Origin: Bacteroidota bacterium
Lineage (GTDB): Bacteria; Bacteroidota; Bacteroidia; JABDFU01
NCBI GenBank assembly: GCA_013286805.1
Contig: JABDEY010000004.1
Location: 770-58,636 of the forward strand
Direction of reading: 5' to 3'
Length of the DNA stretch: 57,867 nt
This document shows positions 1-42,982 of this stretch, in pieces. The translations under genes were made by a program, and so were the position numbers. Under the pieces are notes generated by a model that saw only the letters and a program-made list of their open reading frames with translations, was not told the origin of the DNA and ran no database searches. Within the stretch, counting starts at the first letter, position 1; every line of letters starts with the position of its first letter.

Positions 1-723
1 CAGGAAGCTGTGTTTGTTCCCCTGGAAACGATCAAGGAAAGTTTACCTGACTTTTTTATTTTATTTCAGCCTAAGGATGTGGTCAGCGGCGATTTTTACT
101 GGGAGCACAAAAAAAACGGGAAAGTGGTTTTTGCTTTGGCTGACTGTACCGGACATGGTGTTCCCGGAGCCTTTATGTCTATCATTGGTTATAACCTGCT
201 TAATAATATTGTGAAGGACAAAGGGTTTACCACACCGTCCATAATCCTGGATGAGTTAAGCAAGGAAATTACAGAGACGCTGAATCCCAATTCGGATGGC
301 AGAAAAGTGAAGGACGGTATGGATATAGCTATCTGTGCGTACAATCCGGTTACTAAAATCCTGGAGTTTGCCGGGGCACATAATGCGATGTACCATGTTC
401 GCAAGGGTGAATTAAAGGAATACAAATCTGACAAGCAGCCTATAGGAAAAACGATTATGCATGATGCTGCCTTTAAGTTTACCAACTCCTTGATTAATAT
501 TGAGAGCGGTGATCTGATTTATTTATTCACGGATGGTTATGCAGATGCCATCGGCGGTCCGAAGCGGACCAAATTCTTCTACCCTCCTTTCCGCAAGCTA
601 TTATGCGAAATTTCCACTTTGCCGCTTGATCAGCAGCAAAAGAAACTGGATGAGACGATCAATGAATGGCTTGGTGAAAGAGATCAGGTGGATGATATTG
701 CTGTGATGGGTGTGAGGTTTTAG
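1..723 (+). CDS. SpoIIE/PP2C-family Ser/Thr phosphatase, C-terminal part (gene starts left of the window)
   Basis: Frame open from base 1. Motifs PKDVVSGDFYW, ADCTGHGVPGAFMS, DGMDIA, FTDGYAD and QVDDIAVMGV carry the metal-binding Asp residues. Confidence 0.93.
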   Translation, partial: QEAVFVPLETIKESLPDFFILFQPKDVVSGDFYWEHKKNGKVVFALADCTGHGVPGAFMSIIGYNLLNNIVKDKGFTTPSIILDELSKEITETLNPNSDGRKVKDGMDIAICAYNPVTKILEFAGAHNAMYHVRKGELKEYKSDKQPIGKTIMHDAAFKFTNSLINIESGDLIYLFTDGYADAIGGPKRTKFFYPPFRKLLCEISTLPLDQQQKKLDETINEWLGERDQVDDIAVMGVRF

Positions 724-6986: not shown

Positions 6987-8336
6987 TTATGTTGGACGGG
7001 ATTTATTTTCACGGAATCTGGAGAATGACACTGCAGCCATTATACAAAGCGTAGCCCCAAATACTCCGTTTAGCCTCAGACCAAAATCGTTATCCGGATC
7101 CTTGCCATAGAGCGTAAGCATGGCGAACAGGGAGATTCCAAAGGTTTGGCCGAGTTTTACAACAAAATATTTTACGGCAAAATATAAGCCCTCTTTATTT
7201 TCTCCGGTCCGTGTTGCATCCTGCTCAGCAATTTCCGCTAAAATAGCTGTTGGCAATATACCAAGGGAGGCTAATGGGAATCCTGCCAGTACTACCATAC
7301 TGTATATTTGCACAACTGGTGATACAGGAAGTTTGCCTAGAAAATAAATAAAAACAAAAATTCCGGATAGCATGACAAATGAGTAGAGCACAATATTTTT
7401 TTTACCAAATTTTGCAGCAAGCAGGTTGATGAGCGGATAAAACAGTAATGATACAGCAACCATAATACCCATCAGTATAACGCCCATTGATTCGGGCAGC
7501 CGGCACAAAACTGTTAAATAAAACAGCAGACCGCTTGTTATTATGTAAAGGGCCATATAATAGGAAAAATCAGCTAAAACATAATACCGGAAGTTCCGGC
7601 TCAGAAATGCCTGCTTCATGGCAGGGATGATTGGCGAGCCGGATGGTTGTGCTTTGCAGTATTTTCTTTCATTTATAAAAACGGCGGGAATAAACATCCC
7701 TGTTCCGGCAAGGGCAACTAAACTCCTGATTGCATATTGTACTGCTTCCATCCGATTTTCAACATGGAAAGTGTTTTGAAAAAAATCCGCAATATTATTC
7801 ACGGATGCGGCAAATACAATTCCAAGTGCAAATCCAACCTGTTGAAATGTTGATAGCCGCACTTTATCTGAAGAGGAATGGGCCAATTCAGGCATCAAGG
7901 CATTATAGGGAATAATGTACGTTGTTGCAGAAACAAAGAAAAGCAGGAGCGTGATGCTCAGCCACCAGGCATTTCCTGTATTCGCGGATCGGGTTATGGG
8001 AATAAAAACAAAGCAACAAAATAGTAAAGAGGGAATTACGCTTACTAACATAAATGGAATCCGTCTGCCCTTTTTGCTTTTTGTCCTGTCACTTAATTGA
8101 CCAATGAAGGGATCGTAAAAAGCATCAAACAGCCGGCCGGCCGAAGTAATAATAGCTAATAAGTTAAATACACCGAGTATAACAAACTGGGGCAGTAAAG
8201 GAATCAGGCCCGAATTGGAAGGAGGCAAATAAAAGTAAGGGAGTACAACTGCAATAATATTCACGAGCATGCTCCAACCCAGCATTCCGCACATATACGC
8301 TATTTGTAACCGGAGAGGAAATGGGGGCCGGTTCAC
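6987..8336 (-). CDS. MFS transporter, glycoside-pentoside-hexuronide (MelB/MFS_2) type
   Basis: About 12 hydrophobic segments, FDAFYDPFIGQLSDRT..GRRIPF, IPYNALMPEL, EGLYFA. Starts 6 nt after the phosphatase stop. Confidence 0.85.
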   Translation of the reverse strand: MNRPPFPLRLQIAYMCGMLGWSMLVNIIAVVLPYFYLPPSNSGLIPLLPQFVILGVFNLLAIITSAGRLFDAFYDPFIGQLSDRTKSKKGRRIPFMLVSVIPSLLFCCFVFIPITRSANTGNAWWLSITLLLFFVSATTYIIPYNALMPELAHSSSDKVRLSTFQQVGFALGIVFAASVNNIADFFQNTFHVENRMEAVQYAIRSLVALAGTGMFIPAVFINERKYCKAQPSGSPIIPAMKQAFLSRNFRYYVLADFSYYMALYIITSGLLFYLTVLCRLPESMGVILMGIMVAVSLLFYPLINLLAAKFGKKNIVLYSFVMLSGIFVFIYFLGKLPVSPVVQIYSMVVLAGFPLASLGILPTAILAEIAEQDATRTGENKEGLYFAVKYFVVKLGQTFGISLFAMLTLYGKDPDNDFGLRLNGVFGATLCIMAAVSFSRFRENKSRPT

Positions 8337-8342
8337 CGGTTA

Positions 8343-10130
8343 CTATATTCTTACGCCAATAACCAGTATATCATCTACCTGTTCATGGCTTCCTTTCCAT
8401 TCATCCAGCGCCTTTTCCAGCATTACTTTTTGTTCCTCCATAGAGAAGCTGTGAATTTTCAGGATCAGCTCATCAAATTTCTTGACCATGAATTTTTTAC
8501 CAACCGGGCCGCCAAACTGATCAGAAAAGCCATCAGAGAAAATATAAACGGAATCTCCTTTTTTCAATTGTATCTTATGATTGGTAAATTTCTTTTTGTC
8601 CTCATCTACAAAAAATCCAATCGGAAATTTATTGGCTTTGGTTTGCTGCATAACCCCATCCCGTACAATGTACATTGGATTAAATGCACCTGAATACTGC
8701 AATTCCAGCGTTTTGTAATCAATGGCGCAAAGGGCGATATCCATTCCGTCCTTAGTAGAGGATTCATCAATGCCCTGATGCAGGGTTTCTGCAACACCTT
8801 TGTTTACCTGATCGAGAATAGCTGCAGGCTCTATATTCGGGGTGTTGTTAAGTACATGTTTCAGTAAATTATGTCCCACAATGGACATAAAGGCACCGGG
8901 TACTCCATGCCCGGTACAATCGACAGCCGCAAAAATGGTTTTTCCCTCTTTTTGGGACACCCAGTAAAAGTCACCACTGACAATGTCCTTGGGCTTGAAC
9001 AGGACAAAGGAATCGGGCAATACTTTCTTAACATAACTGGCAGGAGGCAAAATAGCATCCTGTAAGCGTTTAGCATACCGTATACTGTCTGTTACATGTT
9101 TGTAAAGAACTTCCAGTTTTTCATTTTGCTTGCCAATCTTTTCCTTTTGCCGAACCACCTCTTCTGTCCGTTCTATTACTTTGGCTTCCAGAATTTGCTC
9201 GTTGGTGTGTAAATCCGAACGCATCTTCAGCAAAGCCCGGCCCAATGAATCTTCTTCGCTCAGAGGTTTATATTCTGAAAAGAAATTACCGCTACCTACT
9301 TCCTTTGCAAATTGCGTGGTGCCTTCCAACCCGTCAATCAGGTTATTGAGGGCGTCCGACATTTCCCCGATTTCGTCATTGCGCTGTTTGATTCTAAAAA
9401 GGGGCAATACTCCATGCCCCATGGATAGCAGCATACTTTTTAGTTCATGAATAGGTCGCACAATGGAGCGAACCGTAAAGAATGCGATTAATACTCCTCC
9501 TACTAGTAAAGTGATCGCTACCCAACGTACAATGGTCTGAAGAAGATTGAATGAACTCAACATTTCGTCGCTGATCTTTACAGAATTCTTCTGCTGTATA
9601 TCAATAAGTTTCGAAAGCTCCGTCAGGGCTTTTTTTGTTCCCTGATCAATTTCATTTTCATCCACCGAATTAACTGCCAGCAACATAATGCTTGGATCTC
9701 CATAGGAATCAAAGGAATTGACACTGTGAATGATTTCTTCGTGTTTGGAGAACAGATCATCCGTTATTTCAAAAATACGGGAAGCTGCATCCTGTTCTTC
9801 TTTGGACCATTGCCTGGCAATCGTGAGGATTTCTTTTTTAAGCTTTGGATAATCATTGTATATCAATAAACGCAGTTCCTTCTTCTCAGGCAATCCATCA
9901 TTACTCTGAAAGTAAACCCATTTCAGGATTAGCATTTTTGACCGGACCAACATCAGGTTGAAGTTCTCTAATTTGCTTACCGAAGGAGCATATACCTCAT
10001 TTATCTTGTCATTGATTGCCCGGCTTCGGTCAATGGTAGACTGGGTGACGATAAAGGAGCTTATCGTGAGCAAAATAAGTATAGCGAACCCTACACCAAT
10101 TTTTCTGCCAATCGAGAATCTAAATTTCAT
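8343..10130 (-). CDS. Membrane sensor phosphatase (TM - 4HB-like periplasmic domain - TM - HAMP(s) - coiled coil - PP2C/SpoIIE), SiaA-like
   Basis: Two TM segments, HAMP (RSIVRPIHEL...DEIGEMSDALNNL), a second HAMP-like unit (EVGSGNF...LGRALLKMR), then PKDIVSGDFYW, DCTGHG, DGMDI, SDG and QVDD. Confidence 0.9.
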   Translation of the reverse strand: MKFRFSIGRKIGVGFAILILLTISSFIVTQSTIDRSRAINDKINEVYAPSVSKLENFNLMLVRSKMLILKWVYFQSNDGLPEKKELRLLIYNDYPKLKKEILTIARQWSKEEQDAASRIFEITDDLFSKHEEIIHSVNSFDSYGDPSIMLLAVNSVDENEIDQGTKKALTELSKLIDIQQKNSVKISDEMLSSFNLLQTIVRWVAITLLVGGVLIAFFTVRSIVRPIHELKSMLLSMGHGVLPLFRIKQRNDEIGEMSDALNNLIDGLEGTTQFAKEVGSGNFFSEYKPLSEEDSLGRALLKMRSDLHTNEQILEAKVIERTEEVVRQKEKIGKQNEKLEVLYKHVTDSIRYAKRLQDAILPPASYVKKVLPDSFVLFKPKDIVSGDFYWVSQKEGKTIFAAVDCTGHGVPGAFMSIVGHNLLKHVLNNTPNIEPAAILDQVNKGVAETLHQGIDESSTKDGMDIALCAIDYKTLELQYSGAFNPMYIVRDGVMQQTKANKFPIGFFVDEDKKKFTNHKIQLKKGDSVYIFSDGFSDQFGGPVGKKFMVKKFDELILKIHSFSMEEQKVMLEKALDEWKGSHEQVDDILVIGVRI

Positions 10131-10149
10131 ACGGCTAAAATTAACAAAA

Positions 10150-11088
10150 TTAGTGGTTCCCTTTATCTATCTCCTTCTGATTGTCTTTTTTTTCTATTTG
10201 TCCGTCCATGTCCTGGGAAAGTTTCTGGAACTGCTGTGATTTGTCATTTTCATGAAGACTGTAGTAAATTCCGGATAACCCAATGAGTGTTTCTTTACGC
10301 CGGGGATTTAACTGATAGGCCTTTTCCATATAGGGGAGGGATTTCTTAAACCAGGAGAGTGCTTCGTCCTGTATGTCATTCAGAGTAGCCAGATCAAAGT
10401 CGTAATCGAGTTTATTCATGATTAAGCTCACCGCCTGATTATAATAAATAATTCCCATGTTATAATTGGCCGAAATGTTTTTGGGTTCCAGTATCAGCAC
10501 TTTATTATAGGCCTCCTCCGCGAGATTAATAAACTTAGTGTTCTTTTTTGGGTTTTTTTCATAAATCATCTGAAAATAGGATCCCATAATACCTTCATAA
10601 TTAACTTCTATGGAATCCATACTCGCAGCTGGCTTCAGAAATTTAACGAGCTTCTTTTGAAGAGCAAGGCATTCAAGGGCTTTGGGATAATTGATCGTAT
10701 CCAGCGTCTCTCCAAATGTATTGTTTGAAAGGGCAGATAAACTTTTGATGATTTGCACGTTATTGGCCTTGTTATCCGCTGTAGAATCCAACTCAATTGA
10801 TTTCCTGCAGGATTTGAATGCCTCTTCTGCATTTTTAGCTTCCCGGCTTGCTGCCTGCTTTCTTTTAAATAATTCCTTGTAAATAAATCCCCTGAAATAC
10901 CAGGTTTGGGCATCATTCATTGTTTCAGGAAAAACACTTGCTTCGTTAATCAATATTCTGGCACTGTCTAAATTTAGTTTATCCTGTTGCGTGGTAAAAA
11001 TATAAGCTGCCCTCAGCTTATCCAGCTGGGCATAAATTACCCCCGTAAAAAGCGACAGTAAAAGAAAGACAACAATTTTTTTATACAT
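10150..11088 (-). CDS. Exported tetratricopeptide-repeat protein
   Basis: Signal peptide from MYKKIVVFLL (start 11088; the track start at 11118 is also possible). TPR-like AQTWYFRGFIY, AYNKVLILEPKNISANYNMGIIY and AYQLNP motifs. Confidence 0.8.
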   Translation of the reverse strand: MYKKIVVFLLLSLFTGVIYAQLDKLRAAYIFTTQQDKLNLDSARILINEASVFPETMNDAQTWYFRGFIYKELFKRKQAASREAKNAEEAFKSCRKSIELDSTADNKANNVQIIKSLSALSNNTFGETLDTINYPKALECLALQKKLVKFLKPAASMDSIEVNYEGIMGSYFQMIYEKNPKKNTKFINLAEEAYNKVLILEPKNISANYNMGIIYYNQAVSLIMNKLDYDFDLATLNDIQDEALSWFKKSLPYMEKAYQLNPRRKETLIGLSGIYYSLHENDKSQQFQKLSQDMDGQIEKKDNQKEIDKGNH

Positions 11089-11110
11089 GTTATGTCCGTT
11101 TAAAGTACTG

Positions 11111-11632
11111 TTATTCAATTAAAGTAGCAAGCTTAACCAGGTTAGAACTTACTTTCAATTTATAATGCTCCGCGTTTGCCTTATTTAATTCAAATGCCTG
11201 TTTATTGTCCTTTACTATAAAATTAATAGCGGCACCTTGTTTCGTCAGGCCTTGCTTCTCTGTAACAATCAGTGTACTGTTTCCCTTTATCTTACTGATA
11301 ACTTCGTTTAACTGACCTGAATTCTCAAAGGGAATAAAAATAATATGTGATTTTTCCAGAGCGCCGGCAGAGGAAATACTCTTCACACTGATCTCCTGAT
11401 TACCCAATTTCTTCAGGGAAGCCATTTTATCCAACTCAGTAAGTAATGAGCTGTTTGCTCCAAGAACTGTCACTACAAAACTTCCGCTCTTGTAATCTTC
11501 AGGCCAATCAATGTATTTGGAAAAATTATAGAGGTAAACTGCTTTGATTTTTGCCTTGGTATCATCCTTGGGATCAATTTTATGCGCAGATAAAAAAAGA
11601 AGCGAAAAAACCACCAGAACAATATGCTTCAT
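11111..11632 (-). CDS. YfiR-family (DUF4154) exported protein
   Basis: Signal peptide, KAVYLYNFSKYIDWP, HIIFI, GAAINF, FELN..A...LKVSSNLVKLA. Likely ATG at 11632 (MKHIV). Confidence 0.88.
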   Translation of the reverse strand: MKHIVLVVFSLLFLSAHKIDPKDDTKAKIKAVYLYNFSKYIDWPEDYKSGSFVVTVLGANSSLLTELDKMASLKKLGNQEISVKSISSAGALEKSHIIFIPFENSGQLNEVISKIKGNSTLIVTEKQGLTKQGAAINFIVKDNKQAFELNKANAEHYKLKVSSNLVKLATLIE

Positions 11633-11764
11633 GCTTCTAATTGACAGATTTCCTTTCAAAATGCTAAATGCTTATTATTGAGCCCAATATATAAGCCAAA
11701 TATAGGAATTTTGAGTTGTTTTAACAGAAAAAATATGAAATTCCGGAGGCGTGTATATAAAAAC

Positions 11765-11795
11765 AAAACAGGCCGTTTTTCGAACGACCTGTTTT
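11765..11795 (-). terminator. Intrinsic terminator after the siaC-like gene
   Basis: Minus-strand RNA AAAACAGGUCGUU-CGAAA-AACGGCCUGUUUU. The central mismatch reads as a U-G pair only on the minus strand, and the hairpin ends in a U run. Confidence 0.7.
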
Positions 11796-11814
11796 AAAAA
11801 TTCTCCCTGAAATA

Positions 11815-12192
11815 CTATTCCATTTGTATCATTTTAAAAGGCACATTGATGATTGCCTGATAATCTTCTCCTGCTTCAAGCATGTCCTCATCATCCTCTT
11901 CATAATGCCAGTTGATCGTAACGGGACTGCCACCTTTGTGAATGGCCTCTAATTTCTTAAACACGTCCAATATGCATTTGGAGGAGCTTGTATTGAAGTA
12001 CTCCAATTGAATGTTCACATTGGTTGCAGATTGCGGCTTGCTTGCATACTTTTCCAGGGAATCAACCAAAGGTTTATAGAACTCAATTGAGTTTTCCGGT
12101 ATAGACCGGCCTTTAATTTCCAGAAAACCCTTATCGGTATCAAAATTAATTGTTGGGGTTTTGGGGCTTCCTTCGATAGCTATTTTTTCCAT
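11815..12192 (-). CDS. siaC: SiaC-family (DUF1987) partner-switch protein
   Basis: TPTINFD, GRSIPENSIEFYKP, LEYFNTSSSK (Thr at residue 68), WHYEEDDEDMLEAGEDY. Confidence 0.9.
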   Translation of the reverse strand: MEKIAIEGSPKTPTINFDTDKGFLEIKGRSIPENSIEFYKPLVDSLEKYASKPQSATNVNIQLEYFNTSSSKCILDVFKKLEAIHKGGSPVTINWHYEEDDEDMLEAGEDYQAIINVPFKMIQME

Positions 12193-12208
12193 AAGTGCTA
12201 AGATTATT

Positions 12209-12760
12209 CTATGATTGTGCTATTTTAATATTTAACGTAAAAAATGAAAGGGCATCGTCCACAGGCATAAAATTATAGTTCAGTTTTTGTCCTGTTTTGC
12301 GGGCAATATCAATCATTCCTAATCCTCCTCCGCCTTTATCTGACATCATTCCATTGTCCAATACCTGTTTGTAATAATCTTTTAATTCTTCTTTGGATAA
12401 TGTATTAATGTGATCCAATCTGGATTTCAACCCGGCCACATTGGGATTTTGAATGTAGTTACCTGTGATTATATTGTATTGGCTGTCAACTTTTCCTATC
12501 ATAAAAATGGCTGCCCGGATGCGGTTAGTGTTATCCGTTGTTTGCTGCTCATCCATGTGGTGATACAAATTCTGAAGACATTCAACCAACACATTGTAGA
12601 CCTTTTTCTTGATCTTTGGCTCCTCCTGCATGTTGTCCAGTTTGGATTCCATGATCTGCAGAATAGAGGTAAGTAACTCTGATGTAATATCACCCTTAAA
12701 TGACAGCATAATATTATTACGCTCCATCCGGTTGTAAAAATCATAAATATCTAACATCAT
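12209..12760 (-). CDS. siaB: SiaB-family (DUF6272) GHKL-type protein kinase
   Basis: LSFKGDITSELL, N-box VECLQNLYHH, TGNYI, G-box KGGGGLGMIDIARKTG. Adjacent to the siaC-like gene. Confidence 0.88.
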   Translation of the reverse strand: MMLDIYDFYNRMERNNIMLSFKGDITSELLTSILQIMESKLDNMQEEPKIKKKVYNVLVECLQNLYHHMDEQQTTDNTNRIRAAIFMIGKVDSQYNIITGNYIQNPNVAGLKSRLDHINTLSKEELKDYYKQVLDNGMMSDKGGGGLGMIDIARKTGQKLNYNFMPVDDALSFFTLNIKIAQS

Positions 12761-12868: not shown

Positions 12869-13612
12869 ATGAAAGACGGTGTTAATTCCGAATGGTTTAC
12901 GGATTGGTTCGACAGTCCGTTTTACCATGCTTTGTATAAAAAGCGGAACGAATCGGAAGCCGGCTTCTTTATTGATAACCTGCTGGAAAGATTAAAACTC
13001 CCTGCCGGCAGTAAAATTGCGGATATTGCCTGCGGTAAAGGCCGGCATGCAATTTACCTGAATAAAAAGGGTTTTGATGTGACTGGTATTGATATTTCGG
13101 AAAGCAGTATAATAGCTGCAAAAAAACAGGAGAATGAAACCCTGCATTTCGCGCTGCATGATATGCGCAGTACTTTTATTACCAATTATTTTGATGCTGC
13201 CCTGAACCTCTTTACAAGTTTTGGTTATTTTAAAACGGAACATGAAAATGAACTGGCCGTACGAACGCTTGCCCTGGCGGTTAAAAAAAACGGAATCGTG
13301 GTCATTGATTTTTTAAATGCAACTACCGTATTAAAGAACCTGGTAAACCTGGAAGAAAAATGTATTGAAGGGATTACCTTTAAGATAAAAAAGCTGGTTG
13401 CAGGTAAGAGACTGGTCAAGGAGATCGATTTCCAGTCCGAAGGCAGGCCGTTCCATTTTGTTGAGAGTGTCCAGCTGCTAAACCTTATTGATTTTGAGAA
13501 CTACTTTAAGCACACGGGACTGAAAACAGTCCACCTTTTTGGGGACTATTCGCTTCAGCCCTTTCAGCCGGAATTCTCTGACAGGTTGATTATTGTTGGG
13601 CAAAAGCTGTAA
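12869..13612 (+). CDS. Class I SAM-dependent methyltransferase
   Basis: DIACGKGRH motif I, GIDIS, HDMR, NLFTSFGYF, IDFLN. Confidence 0.88.
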   Translation: MKDGVNSEWFTDWFDSPFYHALYKKRNESEAGFFIDNLLERLKLPAGSKIADIACGKGRHAIYLNKKGFDVTGIDISESSIIAAKKQENETLHFALHDMRSTFITNYFDAALNLFTSFGYFKTEHENELAVRTLALAVKKNGIVVIDFLNATTVLKNLVNLEEKCIEGITFKIKKLVAGKRLVKEIDFQSEGRPFHFVESVQLLNLIDFENYFKHTGLKTVHLFGDYSLQPFQPEFSDRLIIVGQKL

Positions 13613-39748: not shown

Positions 39749-42700
39749 ATGAAAAACAACTTCATTAAATCTAAATTCTGTTCCCTTTTTCTTTTTTACC
39801 TCTTCCCTGCCCTTCTCCTTTCTCAAAACAATAATTTCCGTCAATGGAGCAGTAAGGAAGGCTTGCCCCAATCTGATATTCATTGTATAAAGCAGGACAA
39901 AAGAGGATATATCTGGCTTGGTACGGGCGAAGGTATCTGCCAGTTCGACGGAAAGAAATTTAAATCCTATTCAAAAAAAGAAGGGTTCAATGGCAACTCT
40001 GTCCGGTGCATAATGGAAGACCACCTTGGCCGGCTTTGGTTTGGTTCTGACCAGGGAATTGAGGTATATGATGGCTATAAATTCAAAACAATTGGAAAAT
40101 CCCAGGGACTGGCCGGCAGTTCTGTACTCTGCCTTTTGGAGGATGACTTAAAAAATGTCTGGGCAGGGACTGATGACGGGGGGCTGAACCAAATAATTTC
40201 TTTGGGTAAAGATTCATTTAAAGTAACGGATGCAGGTAAAAAACTGGGATTGGACAAGGCTCCTGTTTTTGATTTATTGGAGGATGGTAACAAAAAAATA
40301 TGGGTTGCAACATTTGCAGGTATTGCTATACTTACGCCTAAAGGGGATACATGTGATGTTCAAAACCTGAGCGGATCCTCTACTCTGCCAAGCGACCGCA
40401 TTCTCTGTATTGCTAAAGATGCCAAAGGCTTTTTGTGGTTTGGGACGTATGATGCGGGTATTTTCAGGCTTAATGCAGATGGCACTGGTATTGTTAAATA
40501 CAATAAGGAAAATGGATTGAGCGGCAATTCGGTCTGGAAAATTATCTTTTCAAGTAAAGGGGAAGGCTGGATAGCTACTTCCGAAAACGGCATCAACCGT
40601 ATGATTCCGGGCAGGGAGAAAATGGAATATTATACTTCCAGGCAGGGTTTGGCAAGTAATCAGATCCTCTGCCTGCTGGAAGATACGGAAGGTGATATCT
40701 GGATTGGAACCAATGGTGATGGATTGTGTGAGCTGCCGGGTGACCGCTTTTCACATTTTTCAGAAAAGGATGGATTACCTGCAAATAAAATAACCGGTAT
40801 CGATCAGGATGCAGAGGGGAATTTATGGGTGTCCTCTGACGGTGGTGGTTTATCCATGATCAATTTTACTACCGGCCTGCCCGCGGTAAAAACGTTTAAC
40901 GCGAAGGATGGGTTGAGCAGCAATTTCATAAGTACGATTGCGATTGGTAAGTCAAACAATTCAAATATCTGGATCGGAACCACGAATCAGGGTATTATGA
41001 AATACGACGGTCATCATTTTAAAACTTTTAAGGAAGCGGATGGGCTGTTGAATGACCGGATCAATAAAATAATGGTTGACTCCAAGGGAATTGTCTGGTG
41101 CGGGACTGGTGACGGCATAAGCAGGTTTGATGGTGTCCGCTTTTTGAATTCGAGTACCAGTACCATGAAAATGGAAAATTACGGAGTAAAAACCATGATA
41201 GAAGATAAAAAAGGGAATACATGGTTTGGAACTGCGGGAGGATTGGCAAGGTATACCGGAGATGGTATTATCAGGACTTTTGACGAAGCAGAAGGATTAA
41301 AACAAAAAGACGTAAACGCTATTGCCGAGGGACCTGATGGTAACATCTGGATTGGGACAAATACCGGAGGATTGTATAAATACAATGCACAGAAGCCTGA
41401 CAGCATTGCTATTGAGTTTGTGGCAGACGACAGTTTGCTTGCATCCAATTCCATCCATATGCTTTTGTTCCAGGATAACCAGACGCTGATTGCGGGCACC
41501 AATAAGGGATTTGATAAAATAAATCTGGATGCAAATGGTAAAATCCTGAAAGTTCAGAATTATAATTCAACGGATGGATTTACCGGACTTGAATGCAACG
41601 ACAATGCAATTTATAAGGACAAACAGGGGGCTATTTGGTTTGGAACGGTAAAGGGCTTAACAAAGTATTCTCCATCCCTGGATTTTTCCTCTAAAATCCC
41701 GCCGCTGGTGCATGTGTCAGACCTGCAGTTGTTTTATAAAAAGGTCGACTGGTCTGCCAAATCGGATAGCGTGTTGCCCTGGTCCAGGTTACCGGCCTCT
41801 CTGACACTTAAGTATGATGAAAATAATCTGACCTTTTATTTTTCAGCCATCTCCTTAAATAATCCTGAGAAAATAAGGTACAGATATAAATTAGAGGGAA
41901 GAGAAAAGGAATGGACCCCTCCCCGAACAGAAGACAGGGCCAACTTTTCCGGTCTTTCTGAAGGAAAATACACCTTTAAAGTGATGGCCTGTGATGCCAG
42001 CGGGAACTGGTCCGAGCCTTCTGAATTCAGTTTCATCATTTCCCCTCCCTGGTACAGAACGATCTGGTTTTACCTGATATGCCTGATTATCATAGTTTCC
42101 TCTACTTACGCTTATATACGTTACAGGGAAAAGGCTTTGAAAGAAGAAAAAAGAATTCTTGAAAATATTGTGGTGGAGCGCACGAAAGTTATCTCCGAAC
42201 AGAAAGATCACCTCGCTGAAAAAAACAGGGAAATTTTAGACAGTATTACCTATGCGAAGCGAATTCAGAATTCGATTCTTCCACCTAAAGAAACGATAAA
42301 AGCTGCCTTTCAGGAATCCTTTGTCCTTTATAAACCTAAGGATATAGTCAGCGGAGATTTATACTGGTTTCATAAAACTGCTAAAGGTTTTCTCCTTGCA
42401 GCAGCTGACTGTACCGGCCATGGGATCCCCGGTGCATTTATGAGCATAGTGGCCTATGAGAAATTAACAGAGGCTGCCTTGTTTACTTCTGATGTAAGTG
42501 AATTACTAAGTTTACTGAACAAGGGTGTAAAGAGGTCTCTCAGGCAATCGGATCATGAAGGTTCTACACGGGATGGGATGGACATTGCTGTCTGTCATTT
42601 CGATCTGAAAACCAGGATTGTGGAATATGCAGCCGCCAATCGTCCATTATGGATAGTGAAAAAGGGAGGAACTGAAGTTGTTGAAATTAAAGCAACAAAA

Positions 42701-42982
42701 AATGCCATTGGAGGACTTACCAAAGATGATCAGCAATATCAGAAACACGTGATTGAGTTGCTGGAAGGAGATACTGTTTACATGTCCAGTGATGGCTATG
42801 CAGATCAATTCGGGCATAATAATAAGAAAATGATGACTAAGCGGTTCAGAGAAGTGATCATGTCAATTCAGGATCGCTCTATGGAAGATCAGTGCAGTTA
42901 CCTGGATGAATTCTACGATAAGTGGAAAGGGAAGTTTGAACAGATTGATGATGTGCTGGTGGTTGGGGTGAAGTTGGTTTAA
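39749..42982 (+). CDS. Sensor phosphatase (two-component-regulator beta-propellers - Y_Y_Y - TM - PP2C/SpoIIE)
   Basis: Many D..G..W.GT..G repeats, YRYKLEG..GKYTFKV Y_Y_Y domain, TM after PPWYRTIWF, then PKDIVSGD, DCTGHG, DGMDI, SDG and QIDD. Confidence 0.92.
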   Translation: MKNNFIKSKFCSLFLFYLFPALLLSQNNNFRQWSSKEGLPQSDIHCIKQDKRGYIWLGTGEGICQFDGKKFKSYSKKEGFNGNSVRCIMEDHLGRLWFGSDQGIEVYDGYKFKTIGKSQGLAGSSVLCLLEDDLKNVWAGTDDGGLNQIISLGKDSFKVTDAGKKLGLDKAPVFDLLEDGNKKIWVATFAGIAILTPKGDTCDVQNLSGSSTLPSDRILCIAKDAKGFLWFGTYDAGIFRLNADGTGIVKYNKENGLSGNSVWKIIFSSKGEGWIATSENGINRMIPGREKMEYYTSRQGLASNQILCLLEDTEGDIWIGTNGDGLCELPGDRFSHFSEKDGLPANKITGIDQDAEGNLWVSSDGGGLSMINFTTGLPAVKTFNAKDGLSSNFISTIAIGKSNNSNIWIGTTNQGIMKYDGHHFKTFKEADGLLNDRINKIMVDSKGIVWCGTGDGISRFDGVRFLNSSTSTMKMENYGVKTMIEDKKGNTWFGTAGGLARYTGDGIIRTFDEAEGLKQKDVNAIAEGPDGNIWIGTNTGGLYKYNAQKPDSIAIEFVADDSLLASNSIHMLLFQDNQTLIAGTNKGFDKINLDANGKILKVQNYNSTDGFTGLECNDNAIYKDKQGAIWFGTVKGLTKYSPSLDFSSKIPPLVHVSDLQLFYKKVDWSAKSDSVLPWSRLPASLTLKYDENNLTFYFSAISLNNPEKIRYRYKLEGREKEWTPPRTEDRANFSGLSEGKYTFKVMACDASGNWSEPSEFSFIISPPWYRTIWFYLICLIIIVSSTYAYIRYREKALKEEKRILENIVVERTKVISEQKDHLAEKNREILDSITYAKRIQNSILPPKETIKAAFQESFVLYKPKDIVSGDLYWFHKTAKGFLLAAADCTGHGIPGAFMSIVAYEKLTEAALFTSDVSELLSLLNKGVKRSLRQSDHEGSTRDGMDIAVCHFDLKTRIVEYAAANRPLWIVKKGGTEVVEIKATKNAIGGLTKDDQQYQKHVIELLEGDTVYMSSDGYADQFGHNNKKMMTKRFREVIMSIQDRSMEDQCSYLDEFYDKWKGKFEQIDDVLVVGVKLV

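Follow-up and report, generated by a model that had tools for sequence, protein, structure and literature searches.

A periplasmic sensor trio with a SiaA-type phosphatase as a probable input to a SiaB/SiaC switch in Bacteroidota without detectable cyclic di-GMP genes

Our study concerns six co-oriented genes on the minus strand in the genome of an uncultured Bacteroidota bacterium, in which the parts of a Sia-type phospho-switch stand next to a three-gene sensor unit. These six open reading frames (ORFs) lie across positions 6987-12760 of the window, by which we mean the whole stretch of 57,867 nt that was analysed (contig JABDEY010000004.1 of assembly GCA_013286805.1, Bacteroidota bacterium, JABDFU01). 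The first two genes encode a SiaB-like kinase and a SiaC-like phosphoprotein (siaBC). The following three, which we call the trio, are a yfiR-like gene, a TPR gene and the gene of a phosphatase with four-helix-bundle (4HB), HAMP and PP2C parts, and the sixth encodes a transporter of the major facilitator superfamily (MFS). We consider it probable, with some reserve, that the SiaA-type phosphatase of the trio feeds a SiaB/SiaC switch and that the output of this switch is something other than cyclic di-GMP (c-di-GMP). The region itself is best explained as two transcription units brought side by side in this lineage, one being siaB-siaC and the other the yfiR-like, TPR and PP2C genes together with the MFS gene. 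The co-orientation of the genes and the intergenic gaps of 16, 182, 22, 19 and 6 nt, both given in an earlier description made from the DNA letters alone (the sequence-only reading), were reproduced with ATG starts at 11632 for the yfiR-like gene and 11088 for the TPR gene, two positions that are backed by orthologues. The features of the region are the following.

12209..12760, minus strand: siaB-like GHKL-type protein kinase, 183 aa (DUF6272, NF038262, alignment to PDB 6KKO_A)
11815..12192, minus strand: siaC-like phosphoprotein, 125 aa (PF09345; PDB 6KKO_C/6K4F)
11764..11796, minus strand: intrinsic-terminator-like hairpin with T-run (stem, folding energy)
11697..11704, minus strand: TATATTTG, putative -7 promoter box (read from the sequence)
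11111..11632, minus strand: YfiR-like DUF4154 exported protein (DUF4154, 112.9 bits)
10150..11088, minus strand: exported TPR solenoid protein (weak Pfam TPR matches; AlphaFold)
8343..10130, minus strand: membrane sensor phosphatase, 595 aa (HAMP, SpoIIE, NF038263, 6K4E)
6987..8336, minus strand: MFS_2/GPH-family transporter (MFS_2, 167 bits)
12869-13612, plus strand: S-adenosylmethionine (SAM)-dependent methyltransferase (Methyltransf_25/TehB-like), divergent from siaB

The two proteins of the switch were compared with their counterparts in Pseudomonas aeruginosa. The SiaB-like kinase matches DUF6272 with 150.6 bits and the SiaB family kinase model NF038262 (SiaB_fam_kinase) with 175 bits, which exceeds the cut-off of 85, and it aligns over its full length with P. 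aeruginosa SiaB (PDB 6KKO_A, E 6.9e-14). Both the E..QN box (VECLQN, residues 59-64) and the ATP-lid GGGGLGMIDIARK (residues 143-155), with its GGGLG motif, are kept in this alignment. The SiaC-like protein reaches 152.6 bits with PF09345 (DUF1987) and 99.8 bits with the NCBIfam SiaC equivalog model, below the cut-off of 150, and it is a family member rather than an orthologue. Its Thr68, within LEYFNTSS, aligns with Thr68 of the P. aeruginosa protein (LLYLNTSS; PDB 6KKO/6K4F, E 1.8e-22). The retention of the kinase boxes and of Thr68 in this motif had been pointed out in the sequence-only reading, and the structural alignments bear out both statements.

The phosphatase was compared with SiaA both in sequence and in fold. 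It gives 76 bits with SpoIIE, 32 bits with HAMP and 223 bits with the SiaA model NF038263, the last over residues 268-595 (linker and PP2C) and below the equivalog cut-off of 700. Its top match by sequence is the PP2C domain of SiaA (PDB 6K4E, E 3.2e-36), which is also the best PDB fold match (TM 0.89) of an AlphaFold model built on 43 orthologue sequences, with a predicted local distance difference test score (pLDDT) of 79.7. Since the SiaA model outscores SpoIIE in this way, and since 6K4E leads in both comparisons, the PP2C is specifically SiaA-like, and the protein belongs to the SiaA family. D387, D404, G407, D461, D464, D533, G534 and D586/D587 are kept relative to 6K4E and are invariant in the 43 orthologues, in agreement with the earlier statement that the metal-binding Asp residues are present. 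The order of parts in the model is a first transmembrane helix, a periplasmic four-helix bundle, a second transmembrane helix, HAMP, a coiled coil and the SiaA-type PP2C. The bundle consists of four long periplasmic helices between transmembrane segments 9-34 and 196-227, modelled with a pLDDT of 80-94 (helices 7-73, 81-105, 110-136/140-156 and 160-238). The 4HB label that this sensor had received finds no significant match in Pfam, where 4HB_MCP_1 spans the whole sensor domain at E 1.5, and it is the predicted structure that supports the four-helix-bundle identity. A CHASE8/YfiN-type sensor was also sought in this protein and was rejected, with no match even at E <= 5.

The evidence that ties this type of phosphatase to SiaC comes mainly from a phylogenetic profile of 300 Bacteroidota genomes, each at least 90% complete. 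Eighteen of them have SiaC, exactly those in which the best match to the SiaA model has E <= 1e-38; none of the remaining 282 contains SiaC or gives a SiaA-model match better than about 1e-28. SiaC is likewise carried by all of the trio-bearing genomes (50/50), in 1 to 26 copies. In addition, SiaA-type PP2C phosphatases with other sensors adjoin siaBC in loci L118, L119, L121-123, L129, L136-141 and L150, some of them in the order siaA-siaB-siaC. A functional link between the trio phosphatase and SiaC is plausible. The genome to which the window belongs, a metagenome-assembled genome (MAG), encodes at least 17 SiaA-type PP2C phosphatases, of 279-1217 aa and with 273-441 bits on a hidden Markov model (HMM) of the orthologues, together with at least five SiaC paralogues. 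What fits best is that many sensor phosphatases converge on a few SiaB/SiaC pairs and that the trio is one of these inputs.

Two of the further SiaA-type phosphatases lie within the window, at 1-723 (+) and 39749-42982 (+), and contigs C1, C3, C8, C10, C11, C12, C18, C23, C37, C50, C57 and C72 of the same genome carry others. Their sensor parts vary and include beta-propeller/Y_Y_Y-like, TPR and HAMP types. The SiaC paralogues are found in odd arrangements, and FNSTS or FSSSS replaces FNTSS in them. For example, the genome of the window has a siaC-siaB-siaC arrangement (C46:273-1629) and a siaB-siaC pair after trmD (C24:13006-13989), and close relatives carry a solo siaC between pseudouridine synthase and RNase R genes (L158:5944-8622).

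The second part of our account is the output. No GGDEF protein was found in the genome of the window, which is 56% complete, in any of the 50 trio-bearing genomes (50/50), one of which is a complete chromosome of 3.2 Mb, or in the seven SiaC-positive genomes of the same class that are 100% complete (7/7). EAL and PilZ were absent from all 13 genomes searched for them, the seven complete ones of the class included, and control genomes gave a positive detection for each of the three families. The sequence-only reading, which had noticed no GGDEF or EAL protein in the window, had proposed an output other than c-di-GMP synthesis, and the genome-wide searches agree with that proposal. In a lineage without GGDEF, EAL and PilZ, the target of SiaC should therefore not be a diguanylate cyclase. 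Elsewhere in the phylum, 11 SiaC-positive genomes from other classes do have GGDEF, and the canonical order of a siaA-like gene, siaB, siaC and a gene for a 250-aa GGDEF protein was identified in another class (G143:C21, G231:C66 and G243:C18). Because this siaA-B-C-D arrangement with GGDEF exists there, the cyclase-less state of Bacteroidia is best read as derived, the output having been lost and the switch retained.

The best positional candidate for the output of the switch is a predicted one, an operon that encodes a TerB-like ABCG exporter and a lipoprotein. The exporter is an ABC-ATPase/ABC-2 protein (ABCG-type) of about 1,030 aa with a conserved lipoprotein gene alongside. Its operon adjoins siaC in 7 of 35 siaBC loci, either co-oriented or convergent, and lies within 8 kb in an eighth; the chance expectation for an exporter beside siaC was estimated at about 1% per locus. 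The genome of the window shows a SiaC fragment followed by the lipoprotein and exporter genes (C95:1-4200), and this locus belongs to a set that includes C102:2734-5808 in the same genome and L120, L123, L136, L137, L142, L148 and L149. The N-terminal head of the exporter has a weak TerB match (E 4.3e-4), below the cut-off; an FHA domain was considered for this head and set aside, with no Pfam detection.

Other candidate outputs were found in part of the genomes. Small proteins with a two-transmembrane hairpin come directly after siaC in G248, G264 and G039, and an ITRxSDxxQKKL-type coiled-coil stalk motif is common to these hairpin proteins, a stalk-histidine kinase and a SiaD homologue; with the kinase, the genomes that have such a protein directly behind siaC are G248, G264, G039 and G094. 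The shared motif suggests interchangeable outputs on what may be one SiaC-docking helix. The proteins with this motif end variously, in a two-transmembrane hairpin, in a HisKA-HATPase kinase or in GGDEF (the SiaD homologue). Those located right after siaC are the following.

L141:9105-9626, stalk-motif protein
L143:6967-7536, stalk-motif protein
L160:7316-7855, stalk-motif protein
L144:6908-7897, stalk-motif protein
L150:5979-6725, stalk-motif protein

As the output in the present genome, the hairpin protein was rejected: none is present in this genome or in G001 and G002, which are closely related to it, and 52 of the 58 genomes searched are without one.

The trio itself was followed through 80 loci with full-length relatives of the phosphatase (42-84% PP2C identity, one genome per species scanned), all of them belonging to Bacteroidota, as MAGs or genomes that carry the label Bacteroidia, Flavobacteriales, Vicingaceae or Salibacteraceae. 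Clustering of their ORFs gave only three widely common families, namely the PP2C, present in 80 loci, the TPR protein, in 77, and the YfiR-like protein, in 76. Where one of the last two is missing, the locus is cut by a contig end, except in L035, whose TPR gene went undetected. The TPR gene sits between the yfiR-like and PP2C genes in 77 loci, and the yfiR-like gene is upstream of the TPR gene in all related loci with enough upstream sequence (76). Beyond the trio no cluster occurs in more than 36 loci, the next two are shadow ORFs inside the PP2C gene, and the commonest real neighbour is present in only 25 of the 80. The order of the trio and its short gaps are kept in about 76 loci, down to 42% PP2C identity, while the flanks all change. 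The trio is a robust, widely conserved unit, and its carriers in the class include several complete, isolate-grade genomes, G152 and G156 among them.

Both partners of the phosphatase carry predicted signal peptides. Apart from its match to DUF4154, the YfiR-like protein reaches 111 bits with NF053591, below the cut-off of 125, and 20 bits with NF053586 (sequest_YfiR), whose cut-off is 85. Its single sequence did not match YfiR in the PDB, and the profile of its family gave a match to YfiR there at no better than E 0.07. The protein has a hydrophobic N-terminus and no cysteine, and it reads as a clear but remote member of DUF4154 and not as an orthologue of YfiR, so that the name yfiR-like given earlier is right about the family and should not be taken for orthology. 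With no cysteine, disulfide redox sensing of the YfiR/HmsC type is therefore impossible. The TPR protein shows weak Pfam TPR matches and a signal peptide that ends in ...IYAQ (type-I-like), with no lipobox Cys. Its AlphaFold model (pLDDT 94.1) is an all-alpha solenoid of 13 helices, and its PDB matches are to generic TPR proteins only.

In contrast to the trio, the six-gene arrangement is not conserved. The proximity of siaB and siaC to the trio was checked with BLAST and purpose-built HMMs within 10 kb in the 80 loci, and SiaB and SiaC occur together near it only in the window and in L007 and L008, its two closest relatives, with more than 83% phosphatase identity; the HMM search also placed a distant SiaC, on the opposite strand, near the trio of L036. 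A six-gene operon conserved in relatives was ruled out by these searches. The sequence-only reading had itself named a gene order that relatives do not share as something that would refute it, and the comparison gave that result. In all 20 trio-bearing genomes examined (20/20), the orthologous siaB-siaC pair is a two-gene unit elsewhere, apart from the trio, and its SiaC is 73-90% identical to that of the window, though the phosphatase of those genomes is only 43-59% identical. Since siaBC and the trio are each conserved separately and adjoin only in the window and the two relatives, the six-gene arrangement is a recent juxtaposition.

The DNA between the two units points in the same direction. 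An intrinsic-terminator-like hairpin begins 19 nt past the siaC stop and consists of a GC-containing 14-bp stem followed by the T-run GTTTTTAT. It folds at -17.9 kcal/mol with a z of -4.26, and 0 of 200 shuffles were as stable. The box TATATTTG, 65 nt ahead of the start codon of the yfiR-like gene, matches TAnnTTTG, the consensus of the Bacteroidetes -7 promoter motif known from Bacteroides promoters; it is a putative promoter of the yfiR-like/TPR/PP2C unit. We read siaBC and the trio as two units because of the terminator after siaC and the separate conservation of each. The Sia/Yfi hybrid locus of the sequence-only reading is therefore upheld as to its Sia-type and DUF4154-type parts, which are real, and given up as a conserved operon, and the same applies to the MFS gene that had been counted in it. 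This gene starts 6 nt downstream of the PP2C gene, an arrangement that among the 80 loci recurs only in L006 and L008, which are closest relatives, and it is a lineage-specific passenger.

Several genes recur around the two units. The divergent methyltransferase gene is the most persistent neighbour of the orthologous siaBC pair (14 of 21 loci), and downstream of the pair no gene is conserved beyond a subset of the 21 loci. Just after the PP2C gene of the trio, about 30 of the 80 loci (L009-L085) have a co-oriented gene for a type B (CHU_C) cargo of the type IX secretion system (T9SS) or for a collagen-repeat surface protein, often followed by PorP/SprF and OmpA/PD40 genes. An extracytoplasmic function (ECF) sigma factor gene is divergent and upstream of the yfiR-like gene in about 12 loci, and a universal stress protein gene is convergent and downstream of the PP2C gene in about 10.

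Among the known systems, the closest switch is SiaABCD of P. aeruginosa (PA0172-PA0169; PMC7647112 / bioRxiv 10.1101/674879, PMC8457831; PDB 6K4E, 6K4F, 6KKO, 7E6G). Both have a SiaB-family kinase, a DUF1987 protein with Thr68 in NTSS and a HAMP-PP2C phosphatase, with the catalytic residues kept, and presumably the same phospho-switch chemistry. None of the three proteins reaches the NCBIfam equivalog cut-off of its model (SiaA, SiaB, SiaC); the family cut-off of NF038262 is passed by the SiaB-like kinase. Unlike SiaABCD, the present lineage has no SiaD and no c-di-GMP gene, and instead of a single siaABCD operon we find siaB-siaC, a terminator, and then the yfiR-like, TPR and siaA-like genes. 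The phosphatase also differs from SiaA of P. aeruginosa in its periplasmic sensor and in having two dedicated exported partners, and the single phosphatase and single SiaC of SiaABCD contrast with 17 or more SiaA-type phosphatases and five or more SiaC paralogues in this genome. It has been reported that DUF1987 is widespread, that it probably modulates adjacent proteins, and that SiaC/DUF1987 is related to STAS only structurally (PMC8457831). The RsbU/RsbP-RsbV-RsbW and SpoIIE-SpoIIAA-SpoIIAB systems are alike in that a PPM/PP2C phosphatase and a GHKL-type kinase act in opposition on one small phosphoprotein of a single domain, and in that several sensor phosphatases feed one switch. They differ from the present system, in which the phosphoprotein is SiaC/DUF1987, the kinase is SiaB/DUF6272 and the locus holds no sigma/anti-sigma pair.

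With YfiBNR (TpbB) and HmsCDE the trio shares a layout, namely an exported DUF4154 protein beside a transmembrane HAMP sensor and a third exported protein. The sequence-only reading had assigned YfiR to YfiBNR, which proved too narrow: Malone et al. 2012 (PMC3375315) had described the YfiR/YfiN[PAS-HAMP] core as a module of ancient origin that is combined with several kinds of output (histidine kinase, GGDEF-EAL, HPT, MCP) and often lacks YfiB. The genome of the window offers an example of its own: another DUF4154 gene (144 bits) is flanked there by the genes of a TonB-dependent receptor and of a CHASE8-HAMP-PAS histidine kinase (C16:15381-20195). This is a classical YfiR/YfiN-like pairing with a kinase output, and a cluster of receiver-domain genes adjoins it. 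The pairing of a DUF4154 protein with a neighbouring HAMP sensor is a known design, and what is new here is the PP2C output, the predicted four-helix-bundle sensor and the soluble TPR partner. The PP2C is not among the published outputs (GGDEF, GGDEF-EAL, HPT, histidine kinase, MCP; PMC3375315), the sensor is modelled as a four-helix bundle unlike the CHASE8/PAS of YfiN, the TPR protein, as third partner, is soluble and has no lipobox, unlike YfiB, an OmpA/Pal-like outer-membrane lipoprotein, and the DUF4154 protein is cysteine-free unlike YfiR/HmsC. The trio fits the modular concept of a YfiR-like protein and a HAMP sensor (Malone 2012), with DUF4154, TPR and HAMP-PP2C genes together in 76 loci and an interaction that is predicted. 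Our literature search found SiaABCD described for Pseudomonas only and no Sia switch in Bacteroidota; nor did it find a YfiR-like/PP2C pair or such an arrangement, in a search partly obscured by "hMSC" stem-cell papers. It is in line here with the sequence-only reading, whose author knew of no such description.

In the mechanism that we propose, SiaB and SiaC form the core of a partner switch of the Sia type, in which the kinase would phosphorylate SiaC on Thr68. The exported YfiR-like protein, with the TPR protein as a scaffold, would set the signalling state of the periplasmic bundle of the phosphatase, a step modelled on YfiR/YfiN/YfiB, in which a repressor in the periplasm is bound or sequestered. 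The signal would pass through HAMP and the coiled coil to the cytoplasmic PP2C, which would take the phosphate off Thr68 of SiaC, phosphorylated SiaC being its presumed substrate, and unphosphorylated SiaC could then bind the target that provides the output. A wider version of this account, which we put forward tentatively and regard as rather doubtful, is that in Bacteroidia whose c-di-GMP signalling has been lost the SiaB/SiaC pair is a strongly conserved hub with dozens of SiaA-type phosphatase inputs, the trio being a hitherto undescribed one among them, and a non-nucleotide output such as the gating of the TerB-like ABCG exporter.

It is important to consider that several observations weigh against our account, and most of them favour an incidental juxtaposition, in which the trio phosphatase would act on a STAS anti-sigma antagonist, on another SiaC paralogue or on a protein outside any switch, while other PP2Cs serve siaBC. 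The adjacency of siaBC and the trio is limited to the window and its two closest relatives, and a predicted terminator lies between them. With at least 17 SiaA-type PP2C paralogues and four or five SiaC loci in the genome, it is by a rough estimate not so improbable (about 0.15) that a single adjacency arose by chance. Stand-alone small STAS proteins, which are alternative substrates for a PP2C, occur in this genome and its relatives, and the T9SS cargo or collagen-repeat genes after the PP2C in about 30 of the 80 loci and the divergent ECF sigma genes in about 12 may also be counted on this side. The profile data speak otherwise: the SiaA-type PP2C and SiaC have identical distributions (18/18 vs 0/282), whereas STAS occurs without a SiaA-type PP2C, as in the Bacteroides thetaiotaomicron control, in which STAS was detected and neither SiaC nor a SiaA-type PP2C was found. 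Moreover, the PP2C is specifically SiaA-like (223 vs 76 bits, 6K4E as top match), and SiaC is present in all 50 trio genomes. We judge an incidental juxtaposition unlikely, while taking it seriously.

The input side of our account is also open to challenge, given that the sensor is not CHASE8/PAS, the domain that YfiR binds, and that the YfiR-like protein is without the cysteines of YfiR. The YfiR-like and TPR proteins could share a transcript with the phosphatase and yet have a separate periplasmic role, for example in the handling of the envelope or of T9SS cargo, and the bundle could sense a ligand directly in the manner of a chemoreceptor. This reading draws on the 4HB sensor, a classic fold for binding ligands directly, on the distant kinship of the YfiR-like protein with YfiR and on the generic matches of the TPR protein. 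We nevertheless find this improbable, since the order and short gaps of the trio are held in about 76 loci while the flanks change, both DUF4154 genes of this genome are directly beside HAMP membrane sensors, and published genetics show that YfiR acts on the neighbouring sensor (PMC3375315). A c-di-GMP output after all, by a SiaD-like cyclase encoded in the 44% of the MAG that is missing or by a GGDEF protein too divergent to be detected, is in our estimate extremely unlikely. Both the completeness of only 56%, which limits the negative results in this genome and counts against us here, and the canonical siaABCD elsewhere in the phylum could be cited for it. The absence of GGDEF from the 50 trio genomes and from the seven complete genomes of the class, the absence of EAL and PilZ as well, and the detection of all three families by the same searches in control genomes bring it close to refuted.

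The six-gene "hybrid operon" has turned out less striking than it looked at the outset, since two separate units were only recently placed side by side. The interest of the preferred reading, in which the trio phosphatase feeds a SiaB/SiaC switch with an output other than c-di-GMP, lies in the units themselves. The Sia switch is otherwise known only from Pseudomonas, where it controls a diguanylate cyclase, and here the kinase, phosphoprotein and phosphatase set is retained, with the phosphatase side much expanded, in bacteria without c-di-GMP genes. As the switch is kept without these genes, SiaC must have another partner. The trio, for its part, extends the published YfiR/sensor module with a serine/threonine-phosphatase output, a four-helix-bundle sensor and a TPR partner, and it offers a testable route from the cell envelope of Bacteroidota to a cytoplasmic phospho-switch. 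Signalling in environmental Flavobacteriales-like lineages is little characterised, and the input, the switch and the candidate outputs described in our study provide a starting point for it. If the wider version of our account, which we regard as rather doubtful, is true, a SiaB/SiaC hub with the trio as an input would represent an unstudied signalling network on the scale of a phylum.

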